From assembly GCF_003334385.1 (NCBI RefSeq), contig NZ_QOWN01000086.1: a stretch of DNA of 4,411 bases; one strand, 5' to 3'. Positions 1,788 to 2,292 of this stretch are shown piece by piece (position 1 is the stretch's first letter; every line of letters begins with the position of its first letter). The notes below the pieces were generated by a model that was not told where the DNA came from, made no database searches, and saw only the letters and a list, made by a program, of their open reading frames with translations. Both the position numbers and the translations under genes were made by a program. This stretch comes from Escherichia coli (lineage in GTDB: Bacteria; Pseudomonadota; Gammaproteobacteria; Enterobacterales; Enterobacteriaceae).

Positions 1788-1941
1788 ACCACTGCGTGTA
1801 GCCCATCAGTGTGGTCCCGCAGGCCATGATTTTTGTCACTGATTCAATTACCACTGGACGGACTGAGCCTTCCGGTTGTTTCTCCAGCCAGTTAAGCTAG
1901 CGGTTTCCCTGCTGAAAAATATCGGCAAAACGGGGAAGCAT
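1747..1941 (-). pseudogene. N-terminal segment of the same IS91-family TnpA, separated from the main frame by an in-frame amber codon and a +1 frame change
   Basis: ATG at 1939-1941 (minus) opens MLPRFADIFQQGNR, then TAG (plus 1897-1899), then LNWLEKQPEGSVRPVVIESVTKIMACGTTLMGYTQWCGLLPHKKSLLPV, ending at TAA (plus 1747-1749). The main TnpA frame is offset by +1 and overlaps this frame across an A7 run (plus-strand T7 at 1764-1770). CG-containing residues (MACG, WCG) lie where the first half of the IS91 zinc ribbon is expected. Confidence 0.5.
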
Positions 1942-1944
1942 GAA

Positions 1945-2292
1945 TTACGCAGGGGGAAGATGTGAGGTGCCGCACTGCGGACAGATAAAGGGATGTCTTG
2001 TGCACACGGACAGAAAATTTTTCCAGGACATGGGGAGCATGGTGACATTACCGTCGGGCTCACCAACTATCCATACTGTTGTTTCATAATTCCCGGAGGC
2101 ATCTTCTTCAAACAGGTATGGAATATCTTTCTCCATACAGTAATCGGCAGCGCTGGCGAAGTCGGGAAAAAACAGTCCGGCTTCATTATCTGTTCCTCCG
2201 GTGCAGGGGACCACCCGCCATCGCAACAGGGGGGCTGAGCGGGTGGATTGTTTGCGGGATTTTTGTTTGCGAGGTTTAGCTGAACGGGCCAT
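1945..2292 (-). CDS. Hypothetical 115-aa protein immediately upstream of IS91-family tnpA; possible IS91 accessory ORF (orf121-like)
   Basis: ORF from the track: basic N-terminus (MARSAKPRKQKSRKQSTRS), C-terminal C-x6-C-x2-C (CTRHPFICPQCG). Its TAA stop (1945-1947) is followed by TTC and then the tnpA ATG at 1939-1941 in the same frame, a coupling-type arrangement. I recognise no conserved family; function unknown. Confidence 0.35.
   Translation of the reverse strand: MARSAKPRKQKSRKQSTRSAPLLRWRVVPCTGGTDNEAGLFFPDFASAADYCMEKDIPYLFEEDASGNYETTVWIVGEPDGNVTMLPMSWKNFLSVCTRHPFICPQCGTSHLPPA

Follow-up and report, generated by a model that had tools for sequence, protein, structure and literature searches.

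What is the small open reading frame (ORF) that stands directly in front of an IS91-family transposase gene, tnpA, on an Escherichia coli contig (NZ_QOWN01000086.1, RefSeq assembly GCF_003334385.1)? It lies in a stretch of 4,411 nucleotides (nt), referred to here as the window, and encodes a protein of 115 amino acids (aa). A reading of the window made from its sequence alone had placed the ORF at 1945-2292 on the minus strand, ending in TAA-TTC-ATG with the ATG as an in-frame tnpA start. It had suggested a divergent counterpart of orf121, the small upstream ORF of the insertion sequence (IS) IS91, or else cargo or a captured remnant of an unrelated gene. We designate the ORF orf115 and its product ORF115. 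As described below, orf115 is a deeply diverged homolog of IS91 orf121 and probably serves an IS91-group insertion sequence as its accessory regulator gene.

Relationship of orf115 to IS91 orf121

The gene and its junction with tnpA are as follows.

1945..2292, minus strand: orf115, ATG start, 115 aa, intact here; divergent homolog of IS91 orf121
1939..1947, minus strand: junction TAA-TTC-ATG; orf115 stop, 3-nt spacer and in-frame tnpA start

The ORF listing and the translation confirmed this arrangement. The stop codon TAA (1947-1945) is followed by TTC (1944-1942) and, in the same frame, by ATG (1941-1939), which opens MLPRFADIFQQGN...; annotated transposases of the IS91 family, 395 aa long, have this N-terminus. 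The basic N-terminus noted earlier was also borne out, with nine Lys/Arg and no Asp/Glu among residues 1-25. This tail precedes a core predicted to be alpha/beta and, at the C-terminus, the motif C104-x2-C107...H111. The C-x6-C-x2-C cluster of the sequence-only reading is present as C97-x6-C104-x2-C107 but is only partly conserved: C97 is not kept among relatives, and the conserved Cys/His residues are C52, C104, C107 and H111, a putative metal site. Twelve positions (F42, F45, A48, C52, I57, P58, G67, W74, V76, C104, P105 and H111) are invariant in the Orf121/ORF115 family, and C107 is almost invariant.

The comparison with IS91 orf121 that had been proposed gave a full-length homolog. BLASTP aligned residues 1-113 of ORF115 with Orf121 at 28% identity (E 1e-11), and a tblastn search of plasmids, with 98% of the ORF115 query covered, recovered more than 500 copies of the orf121 type at 28-32% identity. 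PHROG 25574, the Orf121 family, which Orf121 itself matches at 3e-82, matched residues 1-113 (E 9.5e-7). These three results support the suggestion of a divergent orf121 counterpart. The ORF upstream of tnpA in ISEc37 has 121 codons, ends in TGATG and contains V49, V61, L68, V75 and C105-x2-C108, all of them given as residues of IS91 Orf121 (Fauconnier et al. 2026, PMC13181058). An intact orf121 copy for comparison was taken from p2-S1-CAM-02-A. In the ISEc37 reference copy of pECTm80 (L001, 2590-2955), orf121 has an in-frame TGA at codon 52, and the RefSeq annotation of this stretch is an antisense 'hypothetical protein' of 108 aa (2599-2925).

Orf121 (X17114; ISEc37 copy) and ORF115 share their first nine residues, MARSAKPRK, are of similar length (121 and 115 aa) and align from end to end, with the same order of predicted secondary structure and a common C-terminal CPxCG..H motif. 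In this zinc-finger-like CxxC, C104-P-Q-C107 of ORF115 aligns with C105-P-E-C108 of Orf121, and C52 and H111 are conserved as well. Both genes lie between the terIS end of the element and tnpA, on the same strand and behind the same terIS promoter, a candidate one in the case of orf115, and the same Shine-Dalgarno sequence. On the other hand, the two proteins are only 28-33% identical, the -35 of the internal PtnpA of orf121 (TTGCCG) is absent from orf115, and orf115 is rarer, with about 55 plasmid records against about 1490 for orf121.

ORF115 matched no family in Pfam or NCBIfam, no PDB sequence reached an E value below 1 in a profile search, and Rfam gave no match. Foldseek against AFDB50 with an ORF115 model recovered only its own family at a TM-score of ~0.4, and the structure model is therefore not robust.

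Signals, selection, mosaic structure and distribution

Two candidate expression signals precede orf115, both read from the sequence.

2326..2354, minus strand: candidate promoter, equivalent to Porf121; TTGTCA at 2354-2349, 17 nt, TATAAA at 2331-2326
2297..2302, minus strand: Shine-Dalgarno-like AGGTGG, 4 nt upstream of the orf115 ATG

In an alignment (A1) of the window element with ISEc37 (pECTm80) and the intact element of pM172-1.1 (NZ_CP058715.1, 21497-23314), both hexamers are identical in all three, the 17-nt spacer varying at four positions. AGGTGG is likewise identical in the three elements and is AGGTAG in the orf121-type copy L005. Conservation with IS91-type elements extends to the terIS palindrome, the TATAAA -10, the Shine-Dalgarno sequence and the opening 11 codons. 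In IS91, the -10 TATAAA in terIS drives orf121 and tnpA, as shown by a mutation that cuts activity 18-fold, and tnpA is expressed mainly from this promoter, Porf121 (PMC13181058). TTGTCA would represent the -35 of the candidate orf115 promoter. A generic promoter/terminator scan called nothing; its -10 pattern demands T in position 6, and TATAAA was missed for this reason.

The junction of the orf115 lineage consists of a stop codon, 3 nt and an in-frame start in loci L002, L006-L012 and L013, with a 6-nt spacer in L017. Most orf115-type copies read TAA/TGA-TTC-ATG, and L013 reads TGA-GCC-GTG. The orf121 lineage, including a 119-aa Salmonella variant, has a TGATG junction, a one-base overlap that orf115 lacks. 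In front of the tnpA ATG of the window there is no purine-rich Shine-Dalgarno sequence, from which we infer that tnpA is translated largely by termination-reinitiation, coupling of this kind being the likely route.

The length of orf115 alone is within chance expectation, and other-frame ORFs of 81-95 aa overlap it in the ORF listing. That orf115 is a real gene follows from homology and from its substitution pattern, not from length. In deep pairs (the window, L002, L006, L009 and L011 against L008 and L010), synonymous divergence (dS) was 0.33-0.38 and nonsynonymous divergence (dN) 0.04-0.05, giving dN/dS values of 0.13-0.15; tnpA gave 0.08-0.14 for the same pairs. The orf115 frame has thus been under purifying selection and is protein-coding. 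Among the nine enterobacterial orf115-type copies aligned, orf115 is intact only in the window and in pM172-1.1. The other seven have lost the start codon or carry frameshifts, deletions or truncations, and two of them keep an intact tnpA. A run of six C within orf115 (2234-2229, minus strand) is a frameshift hotspot, with seven to nine C in L006, L009 and L011. The expansion shifts the frame in L006 and L011, where the start is also changed from ATG to ATA and tnpA is intact; the 3-nt expansion in L009 stays in frame.

The segment of the element that diverges from IS91 is as follows.

1948..2257, minus strand: divergent 'cassette' segment, from after orf115 codon 11-12 to the tnpA ATG

In sliding windows and in A1, nucleotide identity between the window and IS91/ISEc37 is 85-98% through codon 11-12, falls to 30-55% at about 2257-1948 and returns to 85-100% from the tnpA ATG. 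The sliding windows show a sharp fall from 98% to 31-55% over 2272-1951. TnpA of the orf115-type element of pM172-1.1 is 96.5% identical to that of ISEc37, and their upstream ORFs are about 33% identical. Between the L013 lineage and the orf115 type, on the other hand, TnpA is 64% identical and the ORF 50-52%. The histories of the ORF and of tnpA are thus incongruent. On the simplest reading of these patterns, the ORF segment was exchanged by recombination between diverged IS91-group lineages, one breakpoint lying in the conserved 5' part of the ORF and the other where tnpA begins. Within the window element the mosaic goes further: orf115 is near that of pM172-1.1 (dS 0.12), and tnpA is distant from its counterpart there (dS 0.37).

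The sequence-only reading had asked whether homologs are consistently found upstream of IS91-family tnpA genes. They are: in all 21 loci examined (the window, nine further loci of the orf115 type on plasmids or genomes, seven of the orf121 type and four Logan contigs), the homolog ends 1-7 nt before an IS91-family tnpA or a tnpA remnant. A hidden Markov model (HMM) search of 1.84 billion representative proteins gave 68 matches, nearly all of which belong to three or four lineages as copies, variants with frameshifts or fragments, with no credible remote relatives and none outside the IS91 group. The ORF115/Orf121 family is very small and tied to elements of the IS91 group. When 100,044 species-representative genomes were scanned, only two contigs matched, both of low coverage, in Thauera sp. 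2A1 (L019) and Zoogloea sp. 1C4 (L020). At ~1.4x coverage, these encode an Orf121 with 100% identity to the form on E. coli plasmids, and they are probably assembly contamination.

Intact versions of 115 aa occur commonly in the wider protein collection. Database labels for this form are 'transposase' and 'IS91 orf2', of which the first is misleading. No description of the 115-aa form turned up in the searchable literature. The 2026 survey of Orf121 kept only copies at least 95% identical to IS91 (PMC13181058), and the orf115 form would have fallen outside it because of this cut-off.

Two further forms belong to the same small family. A 119-aa Orf121 form occurs in Salmonella diarizonae (L003, CP053333.1) and on pLG24p2 (L004) at 2501-2860; it is 72% identical to Orf121, keeps TGATG and lies upstream of tnpA, which is present as decayed remnants in both loci. 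Four Logan contigs (L013-L016: SRR24146900, SRR24146911, SRR24146910 and SRR24146891) represent a distinct IS91-group element. They are stand-alone contigs of 1.0-1.8 kb, two of which cover the whole element of ~1.81 kb. In L013, a 114-aa ORF precedes, across an in-frame 3-nt spacer, a 393-aa TnpA with Zn_Tnp_IS91 (PF14319) and Y2_Tnp (PF04986), and the terIS palindrome and the -35 are conserved. This element is apparently undescribed so far. A DNA search with L013 matched 1446 plasmid records, five of them Arsenophonus, none of which is among the 15 matches listed; tblastn with the L013 ORF gave no Arsenophonus record.

The host element and its surroundings

The element that carries orf115 was delimited as follows.

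579..2380, minus strand: IS91-like element of ~1.8 kb with an ISEc37/IS91-type backbone; terIS end at 2380, oriIS end at 579
2358..2380, minus strand: terIS end, cleavage tetranucleotide and subterminal palindrome (alignment A1, columns 22-46)
766..1941, minus strand: tnpA pseudogene, IS91-family HUH/Y2 transposase; original stop TGA at 768-766

The element has the hallmarks of the IS91 family: an HUH/Y2 transposase of the kind with an N-terminal zinc-binding domain, here a pseudogene, and distinct ter and ori ends with insertion 3' of a CAAG target. More than 1500 plasmid records cover 573/579-2380 in megablast. The backbone is nearest to ISEc37 of pECTm80, with 95-100% identity in the 3' two-thirds of tnpA; ISEc37 is itself 95% identical to IS91 X17114 (PMC3332091). 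The oriIS end, ...CCTATCGAT, adjoins CAAG (578-575), and that of the intact relative in pM172-1.1 adjoins GAAC, both known IS91 target tetranucleotides (PMC13181058). At terIS, for which the cleavage site 5'-CTCG and the palindrome have been described in IS91 (PMC13181058), the window has CGAA where intact copies have CGAG (5'-CTCG on the other strand), and its palindrome reads GCAGCC-TGAC-GACTGC against GCAGCC-TGAC-GGCTGC in intact copies.

The tnpA gene, which encodes 395 aa in intact relatives, carries three lesions in the window. Codon 15 (1899-1897) is TAG instead of TGG, 11 bp are missing between 1786 and 1785, and the loss of a single base pair between 822 and 821 alters the C-terminus of TnpA. 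A 327-aa remnant still matches NCBIfam NF033538 (transpos_IS91) with an E value of 1.2e-72. With tnpA dead and two substitutions in terIS, the element is an immobile relic. The intact orf115 of the window could act at most in trans, on other IS91 copies.

Fragments corresponding to the C-termini of IS630-, IS3- and IS66-family transposases are present at 2-310 (minus strand), 2381-2587 (plus strand) and 4147-4332 (minus strand), respectively, and the IS3 fragment directly adjoins the terIS end. The region resembles the IS graveyards typical of plasmids. Between the IS fragments, an AT-rich island encodes a 277-aa AraC/HilD-like regulator (3234-4067, plus strand). Megablast of its gene against PLSDB and complete E. 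coli genomes gave no match. The nearest plasmid-encoded relatives of the protein are only 45% identical, and its best NCBIfam match is HilD at 1e-30, far under the cutoff for that family. Possibly it is a virulence or fimbrial regulator not described so far.

The proposed regulatory role of ORF115 and its alternatives

Orf121 lowers the transposition frequency of IS91 in cis and in trans, reduces one-ended transposition 1.5-2.9-fold and sharpens cleavage at terIS (PMC13181058). Taking into account that TATAAA, TTGTCA 17 nt upstream of it and the AGGTGG Shine-Dalgarno sequence are retained, we infer by homology that ORF115 plays an Orf121-like regulatory role. In such a scheme, orf115 and tnpA would be co-transcribed from the promoter inside terIS, and ribosomes would finish orf115 and restart 3 nt downstream at tnpA. 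ORF115, a small, basic and probably zinc-binding protein, would then dampen TnpA-mediated rolling-circle transposition and make terIS cleavage more accurate, by which one-ended transposition would be limited. The orf115 segment itself behaves as a recombinationally swapped cassette on an otherwise IS91/ISEc37-like backbone.

Several points weigh against this interpretation. The TGATG overlap, which raises tnpA expression about 3-fold in IS91 and is also missing in 19.4% of IS91 isoforms (PMC13181058), is replaced by a 3-nt spacer in orf115. A leucine-zipper-like arrangement (V49-x5-L55-x5-V61 / V61-x6-L68-x6-V75) has been proposed, but not proven, for Orf121 (PMC13181058); its positions V49, L55 and V61 correspond to A49, K55 and F61 in ORF115, and the zipper is not conserved. 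At about 30% identity to Orf121, the function of ORF115 may have shifted. Since seven of the nine aligned copies are broken, two of them beside an intact tnpA, orf115 is dispensable for the persistence of the element. Nor is the intactness of orf115 in the window significant, because three lesions in the 1188-nt tnpA correspond to only about 0.9 expected lesions in 348 nt.

A functional divergence of ORF115 is one alternative. The orf115 and orf121 cassettes might be specificity variants rather than equivalent regulators and might, for instance, evade cross-inhibition by IS91 copies resident in the same cell or read termination signals differently. The extreme divergence of the ORFs on a near-identical backbone, the sharp boundaries of the segment and the different architecture of the two junctions would fit this idea, and cross-talk between copies is plausible because Orf121 acts in trans in a stoichiometry-dependent manner (PMC13181058). 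Nevertheless, terIS, oriIS and TnpA are near-identical in both types and leave little for a new specificity to recognize, and ordinary recombination with a distant L013-like lineage explains the pattern without selection. We regard specificity variants as unlikely. A stronger version, in which orf121 and orf115 are interchangeable, deeply diverged cassettes whose divergence is maintained for regulatory specificity, as when an incoming IS91 escapes trans-inhibition by a resident copy, seems to us rather improbable. If it were true, the cassettes would constitute 'regulatory incompatibility groups' inside one insertion sequence.

The in-frame stop-NNN-ATG could also allow occasional readthrough into an ORF115-TnpA fusion with an activity of its own, comparable to the fusion transposases of IS1 and IS3. 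Such a layout persists in copies whose ORFs are about 51% identical, with 3- or 6-nt spacers, and natural IS91 isoforms with fused ORFs of 516-517 aa exist (PMC13181058). Folding of the junction RNA, on the other hand, was no better than that of shuffled sequence (z = -0.41), and no stimulatory structure was found. The stop context is UAA-U here and UGA-U or UGA-G in relatives, all of which are efficient terminators in E. coli, and the efficient UAA-U context disfavours programmed readthrough. As in-frame spacing is moreover the default expected if insertions and deletions must preserve the ORF, we consider a functional fusion very improbable. A comparably slight chance remains for orf115 not being a gene at all, but a chance ORF on DNA conserved in cis, or captured cargo or an unrelated remnant. 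Its absence from Pfam and NCBIfam families, the overlapping ORFs in other frames and the many broken copies would be compatible with this. They are set against a dN/dS of 0.13-0.15 in the orf115 frame, conserved Cys/His and core hydrophobic residues, and protein homology to the expressed and functional Orf121 that persists although the DNA is unalignable. In addition, the ORF was never seen apart from an IS91-family tnpA in the HMM search and the 21 loci. With this constant association and no sign of a larger unrelated gene in the Pfam and NCBIfam scans or in the HMM search, the earlier alternative of cargo or a captured remnant was rejected.

The element that carries orf115 resembles the active IS91-family members IS801, IS1294 and IS1294b in its HUH/Y2 rolling-circle type with ori and ter ends. 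These three are reported to lack an upstream accessory ORF, and the 2026 study called IS91 unique within its family in carrying orf121 (PMC13181058). InsA of IS1 and OrfA of the IS3 family, whose analogy to Orf121 has been discussed (PMC13181058), are likewise small basic proteins encoded upstream of the transposase frame that down-regulate transposition. The likeness to ORF115 is a functional analogy only. There is no sequence relationship, IS1 and IS3 use DDE transposases, and InsA and OrfA have their N-terminus in common with a fusion transposase produced by frameshifting, a product for which there is no evidence in the case of ORF115.

Orf121 is already known and functionally characterized, and orf115 adds a second form of it, not a new system. 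As the window element is a decayed relic, the biology of this particular copy is modest. This second form, about 30% identical and on essentially the same IS backbone, is joined by a third on an IS whose TnpA is 64% identical. Natural variants of this kind help to dissect the roles of C52, C104, C107, H111 and the aromatic core, and to ask what the TGATG overlap contributes, if anything, to coupling and regulation. Elements of the IS91 type mobilize adjacent virulence and resistance genes by one-ended transposition, and variation in a suppressor of this process is therefore of some practical interest.
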